Positions 1 through 15,667 of a DNA stretch of 64,000 nucleotides are shown here, piece by piece. Within the stretch, counting starts at the first letter, position 1. Each line of letters starts with the position of its first letter. Made by a program: the position numbers and the translations under genes. The notes below the pieces were generated by a model that saw nothing but the letters and a program-made list of their open reading frames with translations, was not told the origin of the DNA and searched no databases. Where the stretch lies: assembly GCA_965215005.1 (NCBI GenBank), contig CBDCCZ010000049.1, positions 32,001-96,000 of the forward strand. Reading direction: 5' to 3'. This stretch comes from Kofleriaceae bacterium. Its GTDB lineage: Bacteria; Myxococcota_A; Polyangia; Haliangiales; Haliangiaceae.

Positions 1-588
1 GTCGTCTTCGATGGAGCGCGAGCCGCGAGTGGGAAAGAGGCCGCCAAAGCCAAAGTAGGACCACTCGGTCGAGGCACGCCGCACCACGCGCAGGCCGTCC
101 ATCTTGACTCCAGCAACGTCGAGCAGAAACTGCCGGCCTACGTAGATGTCGGTCTTGTCGCCGCCGCGCTTGAAATAGAGCTCGCGCAGGTCGTACTCAT
201 TGCCGCCAAACGTGCCGGACTGAAAACGCTCGTCGCCGGTTACCCGGACTCGCGCGTCGGCGTGGAGGTCGTAGCCAGCGCCGCCGATATGGCGAGCATC
301 GAACAGCCCCCGCAGATCGGTGAAGATTCGATTGATGGGGCTGGCGTTCTCAATCTCGACATTGCCCGCGATGATCGGATCGGACAGCCGGCCCGTCTCG
401 CGGTGCAAGAAGGTGGTCGAGGTGAGGCTTCCTTGCACGAGCGTCTCATCGACCTCGTCGGAGACTTTGTCATTGAAAAAGCGGTCGTCTTCCGCGAGCT
501 CCACGTCCTGCGCTGCGGCAAAGCGCCCCCACCCAACGACCGCCACGATACCGACAGTCATCGCAAAGGTTGCGCGCCTCACCGGCAT
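1..588 (-). CDS. Putative outer-membrane beta-barrel (porin-like) protein, 3' end beyond window start (partial)
   Basis: Not in the ORF track; translated by hand. ATG at 588 with GGGAG RBS, open to position 1: MPVRRATFAMTVGIVAVVGWGRFAAAQD... Sec signal peptide, then amphipathic strands such as YDLRELYFKRG, DIYVGRQF, KMDGLRV, WSYFGFGG. Start overlaps the end of the multiheme cytochrome gene. Confidence 0.75.
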   Translation of the reverse strand, partial: MPVRRATFAMTVGIVAVVGWGRFAAAQDVELAEDDRFFNDKVSDEVDETLVQGSLTSTTFLHRETGRLSDPIIAGNVEIENASPINRIFTDLRGLFDARHIGGAGYDLHADARVRVTGDERFQSGTFGGNEYDLRELYFKRGGDKTDIYVGRQFLLDVAGVKMDGLRVVRRASTEWSYFGFGGLFPTRGSRSIEDD

Positions 589-2924
589 ATGGACTCCCTT
601 CCATACGCATTCAACAGCAGGGCGGGCTTCCACGCGTTGGGATTGTGACACGCCGAGCACGTGACGTAGGCGGGACCGGTGTGCGGCGGCGACACGACTT
701 GCATTGCCGAGTCGCGATGGCACGAATAGCAAGTTGGCGATAGTGCGCCAAAGCTGCCGGTCTTATGGCAGTCGTAGCATGGCAGCGTGCGGTGCAATCC
801 AGTGAGATTGCAGCCAACCGTGGTGTGATCGAAGCGCGCTGGCGCAAATGTCCATTGGGTATGGCACTCGCCGCAGCGCGGGGACAGCGAGTTGGAGTGA
901 ATGTCATCTTGACGATGACAATTGATGCAAAAGTTGCCCGAGCCGGCGAGCGGCCGGCTGTCCTTATGGCATCGCTCGCAGGCTAGGCGGTCGTGTGAGC
1001 CGCGCAGCGAGAAATCCCCAACGTCGTGAAGCGCCTGAATCTCAAGCCAACCTTGGGTGGTGTGGCACGTCTCGCAGTTGGTTCCGTATTGCCCAAGATG
1101 CACCTCGGGCTCGGGATGACAGCCAAAGCAGTTGGTCGGTCGTGGCTTGAAGGTGATCGACGGATGGCACTCGCTGCACTTGGTGGTCACGTGCTGGCCG
1201 GTGAGCGGGTAGTCGCTCATCGTGTTGTGGTTGAAGATGTTGTCGCCCGCTTCGGTGTGACAACGCTCGCAGGCATCCCCCAGCTTGCCGAGGTGCGCAT
1301 CGTCTTTGGCGTGACAGCCCTGGGCACTGCACGTGGTGGGGGTGCCGCTGTATTGGCGCGCGGGGTGGCAGTCGGCGCAATCGGGAACGTTCTTGTGCAT
1401 TCCCTTGAGCTCCCACTCGGTATCTTCCGTGTGGTCGAAACGCACCGCCGGCCACTGTCCAGGCGAATGACACCGCGAGCATTGATCACCCAGCGAGCCA
1501 CGATGCAGCGAGTCTTCGTGGCATCGCACGCCACACTCGGCCGGCGTTTCCTTATACACATCGTTGATATGGCACTCGGCGCATTCGACGCCTTTGTGCC
1601 CTAGCACCAACGGGAACCGCGACTTTGGTCCATGGTAGAGCTGCACGCTCTTGGCGGTGAGTGTCACTTGACCGGGGGCTTTGTGACACCGCAGACACTC
1701 GTTATCTTTGAATTCGCGGTCGTGAACGTTGGTGTGCTGATGGCAGCCCATGCAGCCGACCTTCTTGGGATCGAAACGCTCGAATTGCGCTGGGTTCTTG
1801 CCGCGATGGCACTGCCGGCACTCGATCACCGCGTGCTTCCCCGTTAGGTCGAACTGGGTTTGGCGATTGTGATTGAACACGCTCGGCTTCCAGCTCGACG
1901 ACGGATGGCACGTTGAACACTTAGGTGGCGTACCAAATGCTTTAAAGCGATCTTTATGGCGATTGTCATCGGCATGGCAGATCTCGCAGTTGCGATTTGG
2001 CTTGGTTTTGCCGAGCTTCTTGGTGTGGCACTGGTAGCAGGTGAGCTTGGCGTGCTCGCCGCCGAGCGCGAATCTTGTGCGCTGGTCGTGCTCGAAGCGG
2101 ATTTTATCGAGCGAGCGAAACTTGGGCGAATGACACCAGTTGCAATCCTTTTCGCCGAATAGGTGGCCGTCGTGAGGACTGTCGTGGCAGTTGCCGCAAA
2201 AGTCGGGGTCCTTCTTCTTCAGGTTGAACTGCGCCTTGGGATGGCACTTGGCGCAGGATACTTCCTGATGAGAGCCCTCGAGCGGCATCTCCGCGTCTTT
2301 GGGATCGTCATGATTGAAGTCGAGTTGCCTCTTGGTGGGCTTCCACACGCTTTGGGTGTGGCAGCGCGCGCAGTCCATCATCGCCTTTTTATCGAACCCA
2401 TGCGGCTCGTCGCGGTCGTGGCACGACTCACACGACTGGTCTTCACCGAGGAAGGTCCGCAGTCCCTGGACGTTGGTGTTCTTATGACACTCGGCACAGT
2501 CGGTGGCCGCATGCTTGCCTTCGAGCGGCCAGCCGGTGAGCTCATGGTCGAAGCTCTTCATGCCGCCCACTGACTTCCAGCCCATCAAGTCGTACCCGCG
2601 CCCCTTATGCTCTAGATGGCAGGTCTCGCACTTGCGATTGCGCACTTTGGCCGATGCGTGGAAGCCCTCGCCAGCGCGGATGCGCGCCCTTAGATCGTTG
2701 TGATCGTGGCAGTCGAGGCACTTGTCATTGGACAGTCCCTTGCCGCCGGTGTGGCAATCGTTGCAGTGGTCCTGGCCGTCGATCGATGCATGCGAACGAC
2801 TCAGATCGCCCGGCGAGCTGCGCAAGAAGTCATCTTGCGCCCACGCCACGCGCTGGGCCGAGAGCACCGCGACCACCACGACCGCCGCGGCGACCGCTAT
2901 TAGACAAACGCGCCTACGGTACAT
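579..2924 (-). CDS. Exported 30-heme c-type cytochrome (ten triheme repeats)
   Basis: 28 CxxCH + 1 CxxxCH + 1 CxxxxCH counted. Signal peptide MYRRRVCLIAVAAAVVVVAVLSAQRVAWA|QDD. Likely start is ATG 2924 (ORF track starts at 2960). Confidence 0.93.
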   Translation of the reverse strand: MYRRRVCLIAVAAAVVVVAVLSAQRVAWAQDDFLRSSPGDLSRSHASIDGQDHCNDCHTGGKGLSNDKCLDCHDHNDLRARIRAGEGFHASAKVRNRKCETCHLEHKGRGYDLMGWKSVGGMKSFDHELTGWPLEGKHAATDCAECHKNTNVQGLRTFLGEDQSCESCHDRDEPHGFDKKAMMDCARCHTQSVWKPTKRQLDFNHDDPKDAEMPLEGSHQEVSCAKCHPKAQFNLKKKDPDFCGNCHDSPHDGHLFGEKDCNWCHSPKFRSLDKIRFEHDQRTRFALGGEHAKLTCYQCHTKKLGKTKPNRNCEICHADDNRHKDRFKAFGTPPKCSTCHPSSSWKPSVFNHNRQTQFDLTGKHAVIECRQCHRGKNPAQFERFDPKKVGCMGCHQHTNVHDREFKDNECLRCHKAPGQVTLTAKSVQLYHGPKSRFPLVLGHKGVECAECHINDVYKETPAECGVRCHEDSLHRGSLGDQCSRCHSPGQWPAVRFDHTEDTEWELKGMHKNVPDCADCHPARQYSGTPTTCSAQGCHAKDDAHLGKLGDACERCHTEAGDNIFNHNTMSDYPLTGQHVTTKCSECHPSITFKPRPTNCFGCHPEPEVHLGQYGTNCETCHTTQGWLEIQALHDVGDFSLRGSHDRLACERCHKDSRPLAGSGNFCINCHRQDDIHSNSLSPRCGECHTQWTFAPARFDHTTVGCNLTGLHRTLPCYDCHKTGSFGALSPTCYSCHRDSAMQVVSPPHTGPAYVTCSACHNPNAWKPALLLNAYGRESICR

Positions 2925-2937
2925 GGCTCGAGCCAGT

Positions 2938-5130
2938 CTACATCGAGTACTGGAAGGCAACCCAGATGTGGACCGCAGAGATGAGCACCATGATGACAGT
3001 AAACGGCACGTGCACCTTCTTCCATGAGTGTAGGAGAAGCTGCGCGCGCGGAACCAACACCCTGCGGCGCTCGATCAACATCGCTCGTCCAAGACGCCCG
3101 ACCAGCTCGCGACGTACGCGGCGCGGCGCCGATGTACCACCAATGCGCGCGCGCCTGCGAAGCCAACGCACAGGTCGTTTGAGGTCCTGGAGAATGATCC
3201 ACATCAGCGCGCCCATGATTCCCGAGCTGTCGGCAACCTGCTGCGCATTGGCGCGGTGCGCTTTGAGCTCCGCTTCCGCTTCCGCCGCGGCCGCTGGATG
3301 GTCGGCGCGAAGGCGCGCGAACGCGCGCTGGATTTCCAGCTCCTCGAGCTCGCGCCCATTCAAAAGGTCGGGCACCTGCGTATAGAGATAGCGGCCGATG
3401 ACACCGGACACCACGACGATGACCATGCTCCAAAACGCCGCCGACACCCAATTGTCGAGCTTGAGTGCCGAGTGCAGCAAGATGAACAGCGGACCGACGG
3501 TGCCGGCCATCATGTGAAAGTCGAACCACATCGTGTTAGACGCCAGCCACCGAAAGGCTCGCATCCGCCGAAACATCGGATAGATCGCCGCGATGGCCAT
3601 GAGCCCGGTGCCGAAGTAACCGCACCACACGGCGAGCTCCATGCCCGCGCGATAATCGATGCGCTCGACCAGCGCCGCCATCGGCATCCCGGCAAAGCGC
3701 GGGTCGTGACGCAGCATCAGATACTGCAGCGAGCTCTTGGGTACATACAGCCTGAGCGCGATCTCGAGGAGCGCGAGCATCCAAGCCGCGAGACCAATGC
3801 CCCACATGACCACGGGGCCGACGCGGCCACGGCGAGTCTTGGCCAGGCCGGCATCGCGAACGCCGACGCCGCGGGTGAACGGCTCGGTGGGCAAGACCTC
3901 GACGTCGCGCAGCGACACTTCTTGGTCGTAGCCCGACTTGGCAACTGCCATCTGCGCTTGCGAGCGCTCGCGAAACAGCTCACCGGCGTCGATCTCGATG
4001 AGCGCGCCGGTTGGACACGCCGAAACACACGCCTGATCGCGGTAACTGGCGCAGTGGTCGCACTTGTTGGCAACGCGCCTGGGACGGGCGATCCGCGGCT
4101 TGCCGGCGCCAAAGGCCAGTGAGCCATCCGCCTCGAGGCGCAGCTTGAAGTCCTCGCGATACGTCGGATGCTGAGGATCTTCGACGTCGACCATCTCGAT
4201 GGCGTGGTACGGACACGACTGGGCGCACAGCGTGCAACCGGTGCACGAGGCCTCGTTGATCACCACCTGCTCGAGCTCTGGATCGTAGCGAATCGAGTCG
4301 TACTCGCAGGGATCGACGCAGCGCTGATCGACGCAGGTGCGGCACGTGAAAACGAAATCCAGCATGCCGAGCTGATAGCCGCCCAAGGTGAGCCGCCGAG
4401 AGCCGTAACGCTCCTCGCAGGCTTCTTCGCATTGCTTGCAGTCGATACAGCGATCGAGCTGGCGCACGCGCACGATCGGCCCTGCGACCGAGATGCCGTG
4501 ACGCACGAAGAAGTCGAGGATCTCCTGCTTGACGCCGGTGATGTCGTGCAGCCGCTGTCGGCTGATGGTGATCGCGCGGCGAAAGCGCGCTTCGAAAAAC
4601 GGAAAGCGCACCGCGAACTCGGCCAGCGTGCTCGGCGCGATGGCCGCGAGCTCGGTGGGCGCGGTGGTGAAGAAGGCGGTCGGGAAGCCGTCGGCAGCAC
4701 TCACCGCGGCGCTGTTGAACAGATCACCGGGAAGAAAGGCAGCGACGTTTTTCTTCGCGACCCGCGCCAAGGCCGGCGGTCGCAAGAGCGACAGCTCTTC
4801 GCGCTGTTTGGCGCTCATCGTCGCGATGCGCTCCTGCAGAGCTCGGCGCTCAGCGAGCTCTGCGCCATCGAAAACGCCTGCCGCTACCTGGCCTTCAGCA
4901 ACGAACAGCACCGGCGCCAAGCCGTTGAATCCGGTGAGCGGGTCGGCAATCAAGTGATCCCGTTCGTAGACGGCGCGACGAATGCCACCGGAGGCGATCG
5001 CCGCGGAAAGATCAGCATTGGGAATGCCGTCGAAGATGTTGAGGCGGCGGAGCTGCGCGTAGTCCGCTTCGGCCGGTGCTAGCATGGAGCGCTCGCGGGA
5101 CGCGCCGCTGTCTACAACCAATTCGCTCAT
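2938..5130 (-). CDS. cNMP-binding-like domain + DmsB/NrfC-type 4x[4Fe-4S] ferredoxin + ferric-reductase-like di-heme b membrane domain fusion
   Basis: Four Cys groups (CIDCKQCEEAC, CRTCVDQRCVDPC, CTGCTLCAQSCP, CDHC-x7-CVSACP). About 5 TM helices with two H-x13-H pairs. N-terminal LRRLNIFDG...FVAEGQV...PGDLF resembles a cNMP fold. Likely start MSELVV at 5130. Confidence 0.82.
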   Translation of the reverse strand: MSELVVDSGASRERSMLAPAEADYAQLRRLNIFDGIPNADLSAAIASGGIRRAVYERDHLIADPLTGFNGLAPVLFVAEGQVAAGVFDGAELAERRALQERIATMSAKQREELSLLRPPALARVAKKNVAAFLPGDLFNSAAVSAADGFPTAFFTTAPTELAAIAPSTLAEFAVRFPFFEARFRRAITISRQRLHDITGVKQEILDFFVRHGISVAGPIVRVRQLDRCIDCKQCEEACEERYGSRRLTLGGYQLGMLDFVFTCRTCVDQRCVDPCEYDSIRYDPELEQVVINEASCTGCTLCAQSCPYHAIEMVDVEDPQHPTYREDFKLRLEADGSLAFGAGKPRIARPRRVANKCDHCASYRDQACVSACPTGALIEIDAGELFRERSQAQMAVAKSGYDQEVSLRDVEVLPTEPFTRGVGVRDAGLAKTRRGRVGPVVMWGIGLAAWMLALLEIALRLYVPKSSLQYLMLRHDPRFAGMPMAALVERIDYRAGMELAVWCGYFGTGLMAIAAIYPMFRRMRAFRWLASNTMWFDFHMMAGTVGPLFILLHSALKLDNWVSAAFWSMVIVVVSGVIGRYLYTQVPDLLNGRELEELEIQRAFARLRADHPAAAAEAEAELKAHRANAQQVADSSGIMGALMWIILQDLKRPVRWLRRRARIGGTSAPRRVRRELVGRLGRAMLIERRRVLVPRAQLLLHSWKKVHVPFTVIMVLISAVHIWVAFQYSM

Positions 5131-5151
5131 CTCGCGGCTTTTCGAGCCTCC

Positions 5152-5805
5152 ATGTTGAACTTCGATAGACGGCACCGCGGCGGAAGCCAAGCAAGCCTCG
5201 CGCCCAACCCCTCTAACCGCCAATCAGGATGCAATTCTAGCAGCTTGAGCACCGATGATGGGAGACCCCCAGACGCCAATCGGGGTCCTCGCCCCCAGCG
5301 ATGGCGGGCCCTGGCGGTGGTCCTCGGACAGCTCGCGCTCACGTGCGTCTTGCTCGCACCTGGCACTGCCGCGGCCGAGGAGCTGGCCTCCACCGCCAAC
5401 CTCGATGGCACCTACATCGGGCTCGGCCCGGTCGCCAGCGCACTCTGGATCGACGGCGAAGTCGATGGCGCGTTTGGCGGCGAAGCGAGCCTTCTCCGCA
5501 TTCGCGAGCACGCCGCCCTCACCGCCGTGGGCGCGTGGGTGGGCGGCTACAAGTACAGTGAGCGCAACGGTGGTCGGGTGTGGCTCGAGCTGCTCTTCGG
5601 CATCAGCACGCCGCTGGTGCCGATCGGAGTGGCGCTGGGGCCCACCATCGAGCCACGGGAGCTCGGCGCGGCTCGCGTAGGCGGTCAGCTGTCCGTGTGG
5701 CTGTTCGCGGGGGCGCTGCCATATGTGCGCGTGGCGACTTTCGATCGGGGGCCAACGGTGTTAGAAGTGGGACTTCGGGTCACACTCCCGGCGATTGAAT
5801 TGTGA
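5152..5805 (+). CDS. Hypothetical exported protein, possible small outer-membrane beta-barrel (true start probably downstream of 5152)
   Basis: Signal-like segment [24 protein letters not shown] followed by Gly/aromatic alternating strands. Ends just before the tRNA promoter. Confidence 0.55.
5190..5205 (-). promoter_or_regulatory. Candidate sigma54 (-24/-12) promoter for the FeS-cytochrome-porin operon
   Basis: Minus strand reads GGGCGCGAGGCTTGCT, i.e. GG-N10-GC with TTGCT, matching TGGCACG-N4-TTGCW, about 60 nt upstream of ATG 5130. Confidence 0.5.
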
Positions 5806-6034: not shown

Positions 6035-6664
6035 GTGGGTACGCCGGTTCCGTCGCGAGAGAGGGAGATCCATCAGCTCAACATCCTAGTCGTCGATGAC
6101 GACCGGGACGTCTGCGAGTACCTCCAGGACTTCTTGACGTCCGAGGGGTACATGGTGACGGTCGTCAACGACCCCACCCGCGCGCTGGAGGCGATGAAGA
6201 GCGACGAGTTCCACGTGGTGGTGCTCGACTTGATGATGCCCAAGCTTTCCGGCATCGATCTGCTCACCCAGATTCGCCAGGTCGATGACGATATCGCGGT
6301 GATCATCCTCACCGGCTATCCCAGCCTCGAAACAGCTACGTCCTCCATCGAGCACGACGTCTCGGCCTACATCCGCAAGCCGTTCACCATCAATGAGTTC
6401 CGCGACGCGATCGTTCGCATCGCGAAAAAAAAGGGACTCATTCTGCGCCGCGAGGACGAGCTGCACGCGACCATCGGGCGCAGCATTCGCGAGCTACGCA
6501 AGGCGCGCGGCCTCACTCTCAAGCAGATGTCGCGCCGCACCAAGCTGTCGGTGTCGCTGCTTTCGCAGATCGAACGTGCCGAGTCTTCGGCATCGGTGTC
6601 GTCGCTCTTCAAAGTCGCCACCGCTCTCGACGTTCGCATCACCGAGCTGTTCGGGCCGTTCTAA
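6035..6664 (+). CDS. digR: Response regulator with receiver + XRE-type HTH (DigR-like)
   Basis: ILVVDDD...LDLMMP...KPF receiver, plus [30 protein letters not shown]. This is the architecture of myxobacterial DigR. Confidence 0.8.
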
Positions 6665-10793: not shown

Positions 10794-13211
10794 CTAGTCG
10801 CGCAAGTTGCGTCGGTACGCATCGCGCAGCGAGTCGTCGCAGAGTACTTGATAGGATTCCTCGAGGAGCTCTAGGATCTCGGCGAGCGGCTCCGCCAATT
10901 CGCTGCGCACCTCGTCGGGGAACGAGTCGCTAGCGTAGTCGCGTCGTGCGGCTTCGAACGCGCGCTTGATCTCGAAGCTGGTGGCGTCACGACGCACGCC
11001 GAGCAGCGTGAAGTAGTCGGCCTCCGCGACCAGTGCATGCTTGGCCAGCACGCGTTGGCGATCGATGGCGAGATCGCCCTCGCCTACCAACGCGGGCCGA
11101 GGGGGCTCTTGCGCGACCTCGGTATCGTCCCCGCGGCAAACGACCTCGGCCGCGCCGAGCACCAGCAATCCGTACGCGAGCTGATAGACGACGAGAATCT
11201 CAGCGCCGGCGGCGTCCGCGACCGCCTCGAGCGTACGACTGCCATCGATTCGCTCCACCACGCTGCGCTCCGGCGCGGTGAGATCGGCCGCCGCGACGAT
11301 AGTTTTGAGTCGATCGGCTTCGCCGGTAGCAACGGTGGCCGCTCGTCCACCGACGAGCTCGACGAGGGTGGCGAGCTCGTATTTACGACGCACGCCCTCG
11401 AAGAGCATCGCCGCAGGGTGCCGCGACAGCCGGATCTTTTCCGCGGCGGCGGCCTCGCCGAGTGAAATGACATAGGTGCCCTCCGTCCATGCGAACAGCG
11501 AGTAGATGATGTCTTCGATGTGGCGGCGCACCGCCGGCAAGAGCTCGCGGCGCTTGAGGAAGCCCACATCGACCAACACTTCGCCGAGGCGGCGGCCACT
11601 TTCGAGCACGAGGTCGCGACTTTGAGCGTATTGCCGCGCCGTGATCTTGCCTTCGCGAAACAGCAAATCGCCCATGCGATCGTGCGGCAGATTGGACGTC
11701 GCGAACACCGGACGTCCCTGCTCGAAGCAGATGGTCTTTTCCGCGTCGGGACGAGAAAAAGTGATGCGCGCGGTCTGCTGGGCGAGGAACATCTCCGCGA
11801 TCAACGTGGCCGCATCGTGCTCACCCCGCTGCAGCTCACCGCGGCGCAACACTCCAGCGCTGCTTCGACGTTCGTCGACGCCGGTGGTGGCGGCGCCAAC
11901 CGGCTCGGCATAGCGCTCGGGCGGGGGCGCGAGGTCATCGAAGGACGTGAGCTCTTCGTCGGCGTGGGTGCTCGCGTCGGCGAGCGCAGCGAGATCGATA
12001 TCGGTGTGATGATCATGGGCGAGGCCACCGTGCGCCAAGCGTCGTGCGTGGCCCGATTGCCCAGGAAATAGTCGCTCGGCCATCGCCGACATCTTGCGGC
12101 GCAAGGCGCGCGCGAAATCGGCGCCGTCGTCAGGCTCCTCTGCGTCCGCGGCGTAAAGCTCGGCGTCGAGGCCGGGCTCGGATGCGGCGGCAGCAGGCTC
12201 GAGGTCAACGCCCGACGTCGACGCGGTCGGCGCGTCTTTGGGCACGCTGGCTTCGTCGGCCATCGGCGACAGCACGATTGACTCTACCGGCCGCCAAGGT
12301 GGCGTCGCAGCCCGCTCTTGCTGTGGCGGCGCCGGCGCGAGACCGCCACCAGAAAGAATCATCGTCGGCTCTCGCCACGGAGGAACCGCGGCGGGCTCTT
12401 GCCAGGCTGCGTCGGTTTCGTCGGCCTCGGCAGCCAGCGCATCCGCAGATCCATCCGCAGCTCCATCAGCGAAGTCCGCCGCGTCGGTTTCGTCGGCCTC
12501 GGCAGCCAGCGCATCCGCAGACCCATCAGCGAGGTCCGCCGCGACGACCTCATCTGGCTCATCGGGGCTCGCTGTCTCGACGCGCTCGAGGTCCTGGAGC
12601 GCAGTCGGCAACGGCGAGGCCGGCGCCAACGATTGCGTGTCTAGCAAGCCGCCGCCCGGCTCTTGCGCGTCGCGTTGCGGGACGAGTGCGTGCGAGCGCC
12701 GCTGCTCTAGACTTCGCTTTGACGTCTCCCCCAGCGATGGCTGCGATCCGAGCGCGGTCATCGCGTCGCGCACAAACTCCGCCAGCGCCTCGTCCATCGC
12801 ATCATCCACCGTGCGCGCGCGGCGCGGCCGGCTCGTCGCCTCGAGCGACAGGCGCACCGCGAATGCCAGCGCTTTGGCAGACAGCGGCCGTCCCACGAAG
12901 CGATTGGCCTCGAAGTCGGTGGCATCGAGCGCGTTGCGCACCGGACCGTGCTCTTCGCCAATGAGCACCAGCTGCACCGCCGGGCGCTGCGCACGCATGG
13001 TCAGGCACAGGGACCGCGCATCCCCGTGATCGAGATTGGCGCAAACCACCACCACCGCCGGCTCGAGCGCGGCAAACGAGGTTAACGTTGCGTCGCTACC
13101 ATCCCCGACGTGCAGCTCGCAGGGCAAACGCTCGGCGAGCACCGCGCGGATCTGAGCTGCATCGTCGGGATTGCCGACAACCAGCACCGCTACCTGCGCG
13201 CCACCCGTCAT
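10794..13211 (-). CDS. Pseudo-receiver + acidic linker + DUF4388-like + J-domain-like protein
   Basis: N-terminal receiver-like fold lacking Asp and Lys. EKTICFEQGRPVFATSN...RMGDLL (DUF4388-type). C-terminal DYFTLLGV...EIKRAF...SYQVL...RDAY J-like domain. Confidence 0.7.
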   Translation of the reverse strand: MTGGAQVAVLVVGNPDDAAQIRAVLAERLPCELHVGDGSDATLTSFAALEPAVVVVCANLDHGDARSLCLTMRAQRPAVQLVLIGEEHGPVRNALDATDFEANRFVGRPLSAKALAFAVRLSLEATSRPRRARTVDDAMDEALAEFVRDAMTALGSQPSLGETSKRSLEQRRSHALVPQRDAQEPGGGLLDTQSLAPASPLPTALQDLERVETASPDEPDEVVAADLADGSADALAAEADETDAADFADGAADGSADALAAEADETDAAWQEPAAVPPWREPTMILSGGGLAPAPPQQERAATPPWRPVESIVLSPMADEASVPKDAPTASTSGVDLEPAAAASEPGLDAELYAADAEEPDDGADFARALRRKMSAMAERLFPGQSGHARRLAHGGLAHDHHTDIDLAALADASTHADEELTSFDDLAPPPERYAEPVGAATTGVDERRSSAGVLRRGELQRGEHDAATLIAEMFLAQQTARITFSRPDAEKTICFEQGRPVFATSNLPHDRMGDLLFREGKITARQYAQSRDLVLESGRRLGEVLVDVGFLKRRELLPAVRRHIEDIIYSLFAWTEGTYVISLGEAAAAEKIRLSRHPAAMLFEGVRRKYELATLVELVGGRAATVATGEADRLKTIVAAADLTAPERSVVERIDGSRTLEAVADAAGAEILVVYQLAYGLLVLGAAEVVCRGDDTEVAQEPPRPALVGEGDLAIDRQRVLAKHALVAEADYFTLLGVRRDATSFEIKRAFEAARRDYASDSFPDEVRSELAEPLAEILELLEESYQVLCDDSLRDAYRRNLRD
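12409..12543. repeat. Intragenic tandem duplication, 72-bp period (41 bp identical core)
   Basis: gcgtcggtttcgtcggcctcggcagccagcgcatccgcaga occurs at 12409 and 12481; encodes SADALAAEADETDA twice. Confidence 0.85.
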
Positions 13212-13226
13212 CCACGCACACCTTTA

Positions 13227-15667
<2,441 letters not shown>

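Follow-up and report, generated by a model that had tools for sequence, protein, structure and literature searches.

Porin-cytochrome conduits of the PCC3 and PCC4 types, as set out by He et al. (2017), combine a porin, very large multiheme cytochromes and a protein with five transmembrane (TM) helices, which carries SGXXG in TM4 and WX3HX13H in TM3 and TM5 (PMC5566968). The same authors proposed that, with two bound b hemes, this membrane protein conducts electrons through the inner membrane (PMC5566968). In PCC4 subgroup II an iron-sulfur (Fe-S) gene (pfam13247) lies directly upstream, and a fused version is annotated in Oceanospirillum beijerinckii (PMC5566968). Both types are presented as bioinformatic predictions from Fe(II)- and Mn(II)-oxidising bacteria and were modelled as uptake conduits (PMC5566968, PMC10734462). 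Here we describe a cluster of three genes, g1, g2 and g3, at the start of a 64,000-nucleotide stretch of DNA (the window) from a Kofleriaceae bacterium of the phylum Myxococcota (assembly GCA_965215005.1, contig CBDCCZ010000049.1, positions 32,001 to 96,000 of the forward strand). The g1 product is an inner-membrane protein with predicted Fe-S and heme-b sites, g2 encodes a 30-heme cytochrome c and g3 a predicted outer-membrane beta-barrel. In the best-supported reading, to which we give a probability of roughly 55%, the three form one trans-envelope electron conduit of the porin-cytochrome type, with net flow most likely outward.

Judged by signature motifs and gene layout, and for g2 and g3 by description only, the triad appears to be a variant of the predicted PCC3/PCC4 conduits. 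Like the membrane protein of those clusters, g1 combines five TM helices with SGxxG and two WX3HX13H motifs, and in both cases a porin gene stands beside a multiheme cytochrome gene. The triad shares with PCC4 subgroup II the PF13247 Fe-S part, here an N-terminal fusion in g1, and with PCC3 a very long cytochrome, the periplasmic one of PCC3 having 21-27 hemes. Unlike PCC4, the 17 complete loci of the triad encode one 30-heme cytochrome instead of three (with 4, 5 and 10 hemes); unlike PCC3, the cluster holds no second heme-rich open reading frame (ORF) or extracellular cytochrome gene, a second 30-heme copy at the locus L006 aside. The Fe-S part of g1 differs from both types by its four predicted clusters, its fusion to the membrane protein and the cyclic-nucleotide-binding-like (CNB-like) domain in front of it. 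Whereas the hosts of PCC3 and PCC4 are Proteobacteria and Planctomycetes, the triad is hosted by Myxococcota. Relative to what is described for PCC3 and PCC4, the triad would be distinguished by its single 30-heme c7-polymer cytochrome, its fusion of Fe-S, sensor-like and diheme-b parts, a barrel family that has no name and a host phylum new to such clusters. The preliminary description of this DNA, made from the window alone, had proposed a self-contained wire with parts unlike those of CymA/MtrCAB; the chain of cofactors does fit the conserved residues, but the design has a precedent in PCC3/PCC4 as described (PMC5566968).

The triad resembles MtrAB(C), MtoAB and PioAB (6R2Q, PMC7198977) in the arrangement of a heme wire sheathed by a large barrel, in the adjacency of the genes and in a cytochrome C-terminus proposed to point outward. 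Unlike MtrAB, g2 has 30 hemes of c7 modules rather than 10 and lies outside the DmsE/MtrA family, g3 has 22 strands versus 26 and matches no MtrB/PioB family, and the cluster is without MtrC. The inner-membrane partners differ as well, being Fe-S and heme b in g1 versus the quinol-oxidising tetraheme CymA. In the Geobacter Pcc conduit (OmbB-OmaB-OmcB), an outer-surface lipoprotein cytochrome is encoded together with a porin and a periplasmic octaheme cytochrome; by contrast, our cluster has no lipoprotein cytochrome, and g2 has no lipobox. On the other hand, g2 is similar to the Geobacter c7-polymers GSU1996, GSU0592 and GSU2210, as they are described in PMC10138318, in consisting of tandem triheme c7-type modules. 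It differs from them in having ten modules versus four (nine, with 27 hemes, in GSU2210), in being Met-poor where each GSU1996 domain is described with one His-Met heme (PMC10138318), and in being encoded with a barrel and an inner-membrane partner.

For the membrane part of g1, DUF4405 proteins provide a further comparison, since purified members were shown to contain bound heme b and are proposed to transfer electrons across the membrane (bioRxiv 10.1101/2024.03.13.584918). Like DUF4405, MsrQ-like and ferric-reductase-domain proteins, g1 has four conserved central His on two helices. The DUF4405 proteins described there have six TM helices and belong to flavinylation/ApbE clusters, whereas g1 has five, is fused to Fe-S and CNB-like parts, and has a c-type cytochrome as partner. 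The Hmc and Tmc complexes of sulfate reducers connect a cytoplasmic Fe-S protein, a membrane cytochrome b and a periplasmic multiheme cytochrome c with no obligatory quinone step; they are multi-subunit, have CCG-type Fe-S and NarI/NrfD-type membrane subunits, and have no outer-membrane barrel. By description, the triad is like them in joining cytoplasmic Fe-S, heme b and periplasmic multiheme c, and is set apart from them, at the same level, by its outer-membrane barrel and by the placement of Fe-S and heme b on one chain.

Conservation of the three-gene cluster

All three genes lie on the minus strand. From its ORF and the ortholog alignments, g1 (2938..5130) encodes a putative inner-membrane electron-input protein of 730 aa; g2 (579..2924) encodes a Sec-exported 30-heme cytochrome c of 781 aa, recognised by heme-site count and Pfam; and g3 (543 aa, with its 5' part at 1..588 of the window) was assigned as an outer-membrane 22-strand beta-barrel from its AF2 model. 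The likely ATG of g1 is at 5130, the point where the ortholog alignments begin, and residues are numbered from it here, the longer ORF frame having 761 aa. The g1 stop codon is at 2938-2940. The g2 gene runs from the ATG at 2924 to the stop at 579-581, and g3 starts with the ATG at 588, extends 1,044 nt past the window start and spans L001 12957-14588 in the contig, where its C-terminus reads ...AYRF. The three co-directional genes with a 13-bp gap and then an overlap, as the preliminary description had put it, were borne out: 13 nt separate g1 from g2, and the end of g2 overlaps the start of g3 by 10 nt.

A barrel-profile search of species-representative genomes yielded 19 loci, of which 17 had enough upstream DNA to be informative and two were cut inside g2. 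In all 17 informative Haliangiales loci, the order and strand of g1-g2-g3 were kept, and one 30-heme cytochrome gene separated g1 from the barrel gene. Co-occurrence was then quantified in 401 evenly sampled Myxococcota genomes at a barrel threshold of E<=1e-10. The barrel was present in 10 of them: besides our own genome (G000), these included 6/6 genomes of its family, 2/2 from other families of the order and one weak match in the class. The search of the other 391 Myxococcota genomes gave no barrel. Full-length g1 and full-length g2 occurred in the same 10 of 401 genomes, and the most distant barrels (28% and 24% identity) still directly followed a 30-heme ortholog. A failure of the three genes to co-occur elsewhere had been named at the outset as a possible objection to the conduit; the synteny in 17/17 loci and the shared 10 of 401 genomes answer it.

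Weaker matches to the g1 profile were detected in 21 further genomes. They covered the Fe-S region in 19 genomes, 13 of which had a g2-like gene within ~3 kb on the same contig, judged by coordinates. Three diverged loci from another class (L025-L027) encode a g1-like protein of 667-695 aa (28-29% identity) with the 16 Cys and 4 His kept, and cytochrome frames of 746-1014 aa (32-36% identity). The frames of L026 and L027 hold exactly 30 CxxCH motifs each, and the longer one of L025 has 31+1. A third ORF at these loci (444-485 aa) ends in F and belongs to a family homologous to g3 by hhalign (98.3%, E 1.3e-14, 415 columns). Given a diverged triad with a homologous barrel in another class, the triad is older than the order Haliangiales. 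Overall, the heme count is nearly constant, at 29-30 in 21 full-length Haliangiales-type orthologs and 30 in four of five diverged copies, the fifth (L025) having 32.

Individual loci showed some further variation. In L004 and L015, g1 is split between two reading frames, probably by an assembly frameshift. In L006, a second full 30-heme gene (11644-14136), 71% identical to g2 and with 27+3 heme sites, directly follows the barrel. At G164:C1:479791-484656, in a genome of the same phylum, a stand-alone relative of the g1 membrane domain (~315 aa) lies ~3.3 kb from a g2-like match in a 1,469-aa frame, an arrangement that recalls PCC3.

The three proteins and their predicted cofactors

Three domains can be delimited in g1, all on the minus strand: an N-terminal CNB-like domain of the CRP/FNR type (aa ~20-200, 4531..5073; AF2, Foldseek and VIA), a tetra-cluster ferredoxin domain (aa ~225-376, 4003..4458; invariant Cys) and a membrane domain with five TM helices (aa ~437-729, 2944..3822; AF2 and motifs). 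The AF2 model has a mean predicted local distance difference test score (pLDDT) of 63.7, with ~80 for both the N-terminal domain and the membrane helices and 30-45 for the Fe-S domain. Because the Fe-S domain is so poorly modelled, we make no statement about its fold. Foldseek with the g1 model gave zero matches at E<=1e-3. For the N-terminal domain, the top 50 Foldseek rows were all CNB, CRP or FNR domains with weak E-values from 1.5e-3, and VIA gave a Z of 11.3 against 3dn7_B (root-mean-square deviation (rmsd) 3.2, 137 residues aligned). PF00027 was matched in 0/17 g1 members at E<=0.05, and therefore a cyclic nucleotide should not be assumed as the ligand.

The ferredoxin part contains four Cys motifs (C228/231/234/238, C263/266/271/275, C296/299/302/306 and C357/360/368/372), which are predicted to be 4x[4Fe-4S] sites. 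In the alignment, 16/16 of these Cys are invariant in 17 orthologs, and together with the four His of the membrane domain they are also retained in the three ~29%-identical homologs of the other class. The best sequence match in the PDB was HycB4 (7qv7_B, E 8.2e-14, residues 225-391), followed by HycB3 and formate hydrogenlyase subunit 2. Fer4 families were matched too, Fer4_11 (PF13247) in 17/17 members with a best E of 8.2e-10. No signal peptide precedes the domain, which would place it in the cytoplasm.

In the membrane domain, the AF2 helices span residues 437-462, 498-521, 532-553, 563-585 and 670-729; a hydropathy scan at a threshold of 1.6 flagged only three regions, overlapping helices 1, 4 and 5. 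TM3 carries W535x3H539x13H553, TM4 carries S575GxxG579 and TM5 carries W703x3H707x13H721, and both the WX3HX13H pair and SGxxG are invariant in 17 orthologs. In the 761-aa numbering the TM His are H570/H584 and H738/H752; a third H-x13-H pair in that numbering, H642/H656, is in a loop and is not conserved. The inner-membrane protein with 4x[4Fe-4S] and two H-x13-H heme-b pairs that had been read from the window is thus well matched by Cys and His residues invariant in 17 orthologs. With the N-terminus inside, TM3 and TM5 would both run from the cytoplasm outward, so that H539/H707 would hold the cytoplasmic-side heme and H553/H721 the periplasmic-side heme.

The relatives of this domain are numerous. 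DUF4405 (PF14358) was matched in 8/17 g1 orthologs at E<=0.05 (best E 1.6e-6), g1 itself scoring 18.7 versus the 26.7-bit cutoff. An exhaustive HMMER search with the last 300 residues of g1 retrieved 1,939 representative proteins at E<=1e-3, of which 808 reached E<=1e-10. Among the 150 relatives listed, 91 were stand-alone proteins (250-360 aa), 84 of them with two WX3HX13H motifs and 88 with SGxxG. When 25 relatives were scanned against Pfam, Fer4 was found N-terminal of the domain in 16. Two relatives of ~1,000 aa, P0248 and P0207, have Fer4, a flavoprotein domain (Pyr_redox) and the WX3HX13H membrane domain on a single chain, to which P0248 adds cNMP_binding; this seems to be an undescribed prokaryotic NOX-like architecture. 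Weak matches to DUF4405, Ferric_reduct and Ni_hydr_CYTB were scattered among the relatives, with Ferric_reduct at E 6.9e-6 in P0222 and E 2.3e-4 in P0257. A structural match of the g1 membrane domain to STEAP1 (6y9b_C, Z 8.6, 162 aligned) is within the noise range for helical bundles and is a lead only.

These relationships raise a rival explanation that we consider highly doubtful, namely that the triad is a NOX/FRE-like ectoenzyme that brings electrons to the surface to form superoxide or to reduce Fe(III) for uptake, with a part in predation, in the acquisition of iron or in redox signalling. According to He et al. (PMC5566968), the ferric-reductase domain has H-x13-H pairs on TM3 and TM5 as its hallmark, and the weak Ferric_reduct matches and the noise-range STEAP1 match point the same way. 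Regulators are all around (the CNB-like domain, a response regulator with REC and HTH domains and, in this genome, also a kinase and a further response regulator), and the host lineage is described as predatory and aerobic, on the evidence of Haliangium (PMC3035250). However, 30 hemes and a dedicated barrel are costly compared with single-protein reductases, and the conserved neighbourhood contains no iron-uptake genes or genes for handling reactive oxygen species. Mechanistically, moreover, the ectoenzyme overlaps with an outward conduit and differs from it in purpose only.

The cytochrome g2 has 28 CxxCH sites plus CGVRCH and CSAQGCH, giving 30 heme sites. None of the 30 varies among 22 orthologs, and an additional Cys pair (C705 and C780) is equally invariant. 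Only eight stop-to-stop frames in the 6.2-Mb genome, 8,000 bases of which (contig C12, 64001-72000) read N, have four or more CxxCH motifs (28, 13, 13, 7, 5, 5, 4 and 4), so the heme count of g2 is not an artefact of composition. Pfam gave Cytochrome_C7 (PF14522) in five stretches (E 6.4e-30) and also Cytochrom_c3_2. The sites group as ten triplets with a repeating F-x-H ... G-x-H pattern, in modules of 65-91 aa. Overall, g2 has 64 His and 10 Met; modules 4, 6, 8 and 9 are without Met, and each module has 5-8 His. The few Met and the 5-8 His per three-heme module suggest that ligation is probably all bis-His. Modules 8-10 are the least charged, modules 8 and 9 the shortest, and module 9 is the best conserved (identity 0.81 versus 0.52-0.66 in the others). 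The signal peptide, read from the sequence as ...VAWA/QDD, has an A-x-A site and no lipobox; together with the site count and its invariance in 22 orthologs, this supports the Sec-exported 30-heme cytochrome of the preliminary description. A sequence search of the PDB with g2 gave zero matches at E<=1e-3, and the NCBIfam DmsE/MtrA model (TIGR03508) scored 26.5 bits versus its cutoff of 192.2, the OmcA/MtrC model also being far below cutoff.

For g3, the AF2 model, built with 40 sequences, showed the transmembrane barrel that had at first been deduced from beta-strand pattern and signal peptide: 22 long strands and no plug domain, with a mean pLDDT of 82 and a predicted template modelling score (pTM) of 0.76. 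The stretch that follows the signal peptide (residues 22-49) is poorly defined. Reading the sequence gave ...FAAA/QD for the signal peptide and ...LAYRF for the C-terminus, and an aromatic C-terminal residue is usual for outer-membrane barrels. Structure searches returned outer-membrane barrels only, led by 22-strand TonB-dependent/SusC proteins (Z 15-17) with FimD and PapC at ~Z 15, while MtrB (6r2q_B) ranked 23rd (Z 13.9, rmsd 6.1, 408 aligned). The g3 product is thus a large outer-membrane barrel, not a specifically MtrB-like one. It has no Pfam or NCBIfam match, and among 40 family members the MtrB/PioB-type Pfam family was matched in none at E<=1, Porin_4 being the only match (3/40). There are at least 394 homologs, every named one a 'hypothetical protein', and g3 is identical to database entry P0001. 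All listed barrel homologs with an organism name come from metagenome-assembled genomes (MAGs), and cluster look-ups of 20 proteins gave no isolate. Barrels of the size of TonB-dependent receptors, FimD, LptD and MtrB are filled by a domain or a partner. A plug-less 22-strand barrel would accordingly need an occupant.

We asked whether g2 could be that occupant by predicting the complex of g2 431-781 with g3 40-543 from alignments. The median ipSAE was 0.60 (runs at 0.60, 0.19 and 0.72), and the best of three controls was 0.00. The pass mark used is reached by 116/157 solved complexes and 2/215 mismatched pairs, and a score of 0.60 or below was seen for only 18/157 solved complexes and for both passing mismatches. 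The runs agree in at least 11% of contacts with a partner pLDDT of at least 70, and we report no interface. Since MtrAB is a solved complex of like kind, the pass may reflect that likeness. The prediction lends weak support to a placement in which the C-terminal modules of g2 may sit inside the g3 barrel; the stronger arguments for it are comparative, namely the invariant pairing, the large plug-less barrel and the way charge and size change along g2.

The same evidence bears on a second rival, which we regard as doubtful: g1 and g2 would form a redox module of the inner membrane and periplasm (Hmc/Tmc-like, or a capacitor), and g3 would be a diffusion or export channel merely sharing the operon. 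c7-polymers such as GSU1996 are described as periplasmic storage (PMC10138318), g2 is without a lipobox and no extracellular partner is encoded, the nearest folds of g3 are transporters and porins, and the g2-g3 complex score is weak. Nevertheless, the g2-g3 pairing persists at 24-28% barrel identity and in a genome with g1 unlinked; all three genes share the same 10/401 genomes, and the triad with a homologous barrel recurs in another class. The presumed need of the barrel for an occupant and the complex controls at 0.00 also stand against a mere channel.

The length of g2 can be set against the envelope. In MtrAB the cytochrome C-terminus faces outward and the ten hemes of MtrA span 80 A (PMC7198977), and the 12 hemes and four c7 modules of GSU1996 are described as forming an extended protein of 12 nm (PMC10138318). 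From these values, 30 hemes would reach ~24-30 nm if extended, which we estimate to be about the width of periplasm plus outer membrane. The near-constant heme number across orthologs fits such a length constraint, or ruler. That a cytochrome of 21-27 hemes may span the periplasm has already been put forward for PCC3 (PMC10734462, PMC5566968). A bolder version of the conduit, which we offer as tentative and well short of even odds, is a hard-wired quinone-independent cable: g2, one chain of constant length (always 30 hemes, about 25-30 nm), would be docked on g1 and clamped in g3, giving 36 cofactors in an unbroken row with no diffusing carrier; the CNB-like domain would gate the input allosterically, the strict heme count would act as an envelope-width ruler, and the whole would be an ancient trait of Myxococcota, which as aerobic predators are not seen as electroactive.

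Proposed direction and destination of the electrons

For the conduit with net outward flow, we propose the following route. The tetra-[4Fe-4S] domain of g1 would take electrons from a postulated cytoplasmic donor, and the two bis-His b hemes on TM3/TM5 would pass them across the inner membrane. At its periplasmic face g2 would pick them up, and its 30 bis-His c hemes would carry them across the periplasm. The slimmer and less charged C-terminal modules would be sheathed by g3, bringing the last hemes to the cell surface. Flow may be gated by the CNB-like domain and switched on from a sigma54-type promoter. In an organism that is otherwise aerobic, outward flow could serve as an electron vent, or as respiration on extracellular acceptors such as Fe(III), Mn(IV) or humics; it would conserve no energy by itself and could be a sink at low oxygen, an extracellular respiration or a reductase. 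A chain of four Fe-S clusters, two b hemes, 30 c hemes and a barrel would account for every conserved residue. What the analysis establishes are the cofactor-binding residues, the domain and barrel folds, the synteny, the co-occurrence and the strict retention of 30 hemes, whereas the g1-g2 and g2-g3 contacts, the surface exposure, the flow direction and the physiological acceptor are inferred.

The same conduit might also run in reverse, taking up electrons from Fe(II), Mn(II), reduced humics, minerals or partner cells into the quinone pool or the cytoplasm via g1. We think this unlikely, although it is the main rival. In its favour, PCC3 and PCC4, the closest described clusters, are presented as coming from Fe(II)/Mn(II) oxidisers and as uptake systems (PMC5566968, PMC10734462), MtrAB-type conduits are thought to be reversible (PMC10734462), and the three heme-copper oxidases of the aerobic host could be the sink. 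Outward flow is favoured because the path in g1 begins or ends on Fe-S that is predicted to be cytoplasmic and is fused to the b-heme domain, and because the relatives P0248 and P0207 carry NAD(P)H/FAD-type modules on this domain, as in the outward-pumping NOX/FRE enzymes. It is also favoured because inward transfer through a bare diheme wire would oppose the membrane potential. Besides, the conserved neighbourhood contains no carbon-fixation or oxidase gene.

Several observations count against the proposed conduit. PCC3 and PCC4 were proposed to take up electrons during Fe(II)/Mn(II) oxidation and to exchange them with quinones through the b-type protein (PMC5566968), and 'nanowire' cytochromes of the GSU1996 type are regarded as capacitors of the periplasm (PMC10138318). 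The extended shape of g2 is predicted from the homology of its modules. The structural neighbours of g3 are generic, MtrB being tied with many transporters and other barrels, and the g2-g3 complex score is weak, with one of three runs at 0.19 and the chains predicted without hemes. The cluster encodes no extracellular cytochrome, and in genome G135 g1 is on a different contig from g2-g3. The host, with three heme-copper oxidases and few other multiheme cytochromes, is not an obvious metal respirer, and the three sequencing runs listed for this genome, from one study, include no RNA data.

Putative promoter, neighbouring genes and host

A sigma54-type -24/-12 promoter-like element, GGGCGCGAGGCTTGCT, lies at 5190..5205 on the minus strand, ~60 nt 5' of the g1 ATG. 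It scored 13/15 against TGGCACG-N4-TTGCW, which we take to be the sigma54 consensus, and the same score was reached in 2.5% of 200 shuffles. GGGCNC-N5-TTGCT-type matches of at least 12.5/15 occur upstream of g1 in 15/19 loci at a similar distance, and at most 7.5% of 200 shuffles per locus scored as high. The sigma54-like promoter of the preliminary description has therefore gained the support of like elements in 15/19 loci.

Divergent from g1 on the plus strand are two conserved genes. A response regulator with REC and HTH_3 domains (6035..6664; Response_reg E 1.8e-27, HTH_3 E 1.1e-12 in Pfam) is the best-conserved gene of the neighbourhood, above g1, g2 and g3: this XRE-type regulator is always upstream and divergent and has 62-90% identity in 18 loci. 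It is without an AAA+ domain and hence is not the sigma54 activator that such a promoter needs. Between it and g1 lies a small secreted beta-rich protein, probably a small outer-membrane barrel (5152..5805, true start probably downstream of 5152), which tblastn found in the same position in 17 loci at 30-41% identity. A Pfam scan gave no match for it. In the Atlas it lies closest to clusters of Myxococcota hypothetical proteins and to one named 'CglE family' (score 0.96, a lead only), and it is also near PagL/PagP-type small barrels. It may be a further outer-membrane part of the conduit system.

On the other side, an operon continuing past the window had been expected. This holds for g3. The next genes on the same strand, for a Ser/Thr kinase and a receiver-only response regulator, are present only in this genome and in L010, L019 and L020. 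A scan for promoters and terminators 3' of g3 gave a single terminator-like site, on the opposite strand and no better than shuffles. A soluble enzyme encoded downstream, which would have kept the cytochrome periplasmic, had been named as a concern; none was found, the genes after g3 being the kinase and the response regulator. A role of g2 as an accessory cytochrome of a nitrite or sulfite reductase was ruled out, there being no catalytic enzyme gene in the conserved neighbourhood.

The host genome (6.2 Mb, 62 contigs, 92.8% complete) has its closest named relatives at the locus among Kofleriaceae/Haliangiales MAGs, a family that NCBI assigns to Myxococcota, Polyangia, Haliangiales. It contains three heme-copper oxidase genes and, as was to be checked for a c-type cytochrome of this size, cytochrome c maturation genes. 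The three oxidases and the only eight frames with four or more CxxCH motifs mark the host as an aerobe, not a Geobacter-like cytochrome hoarder. Anaeromyxobacter, of the same phylum, is a metal reducer. For the lineage itself, which had been called one not known for extracellular electron transfer, a literature search on Kofleriaceae, Haliangiales and Haliangium gave no such report, and the genome report of Haliangium ochraceum does not mention the cytochrome terms. PMC11475568 contains no mention of Myxococcota, Polyangia or the Haliangium and Kofleria lineages, nor of 30 hemes or a beta-barrel. Elsewhere in the same genome, contig C18 (135413-139268) encodes a lipobox-bearing cytochrome (…LLAGC…) with 13 CxxCH motifs and, after it, two long frames with the F-terminal ends …MTEGRF and …AIAYTF, which could be a second, different porin-cytochrome-like cluster; a second 13-CxxCH frame (487 aa) is on contig C32 (60412-61875).

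The triad links three families that have been discussed apart, namely the 'IMP' of He et al., the DUF4405-type heme-b proteins and NOX-like layouts of cNMP-binding, Fer4 and flavoprotein parts. Even if the conduit reading is wrong, a well-delimited, conserved and unnamed gene triad worth annotating remains. If it is true, two classes of Myxococcota would carry a compact three-gene route for electrons from cytoplasm to surface that bypasses the quinone pool and periplasmic shuttles. The triad would then be the cleanest test case so far for a single long cytochrome spanning the periplasm, the idea raised for PCC3, and would offer a minimal parts list for engineered transmembrane wiring. The carriers, abundant in soil and sediment, are considered aerobic predators, and Myxococcota would join the organisms that exchange electrons with minerals, humics and neighbouring cells.

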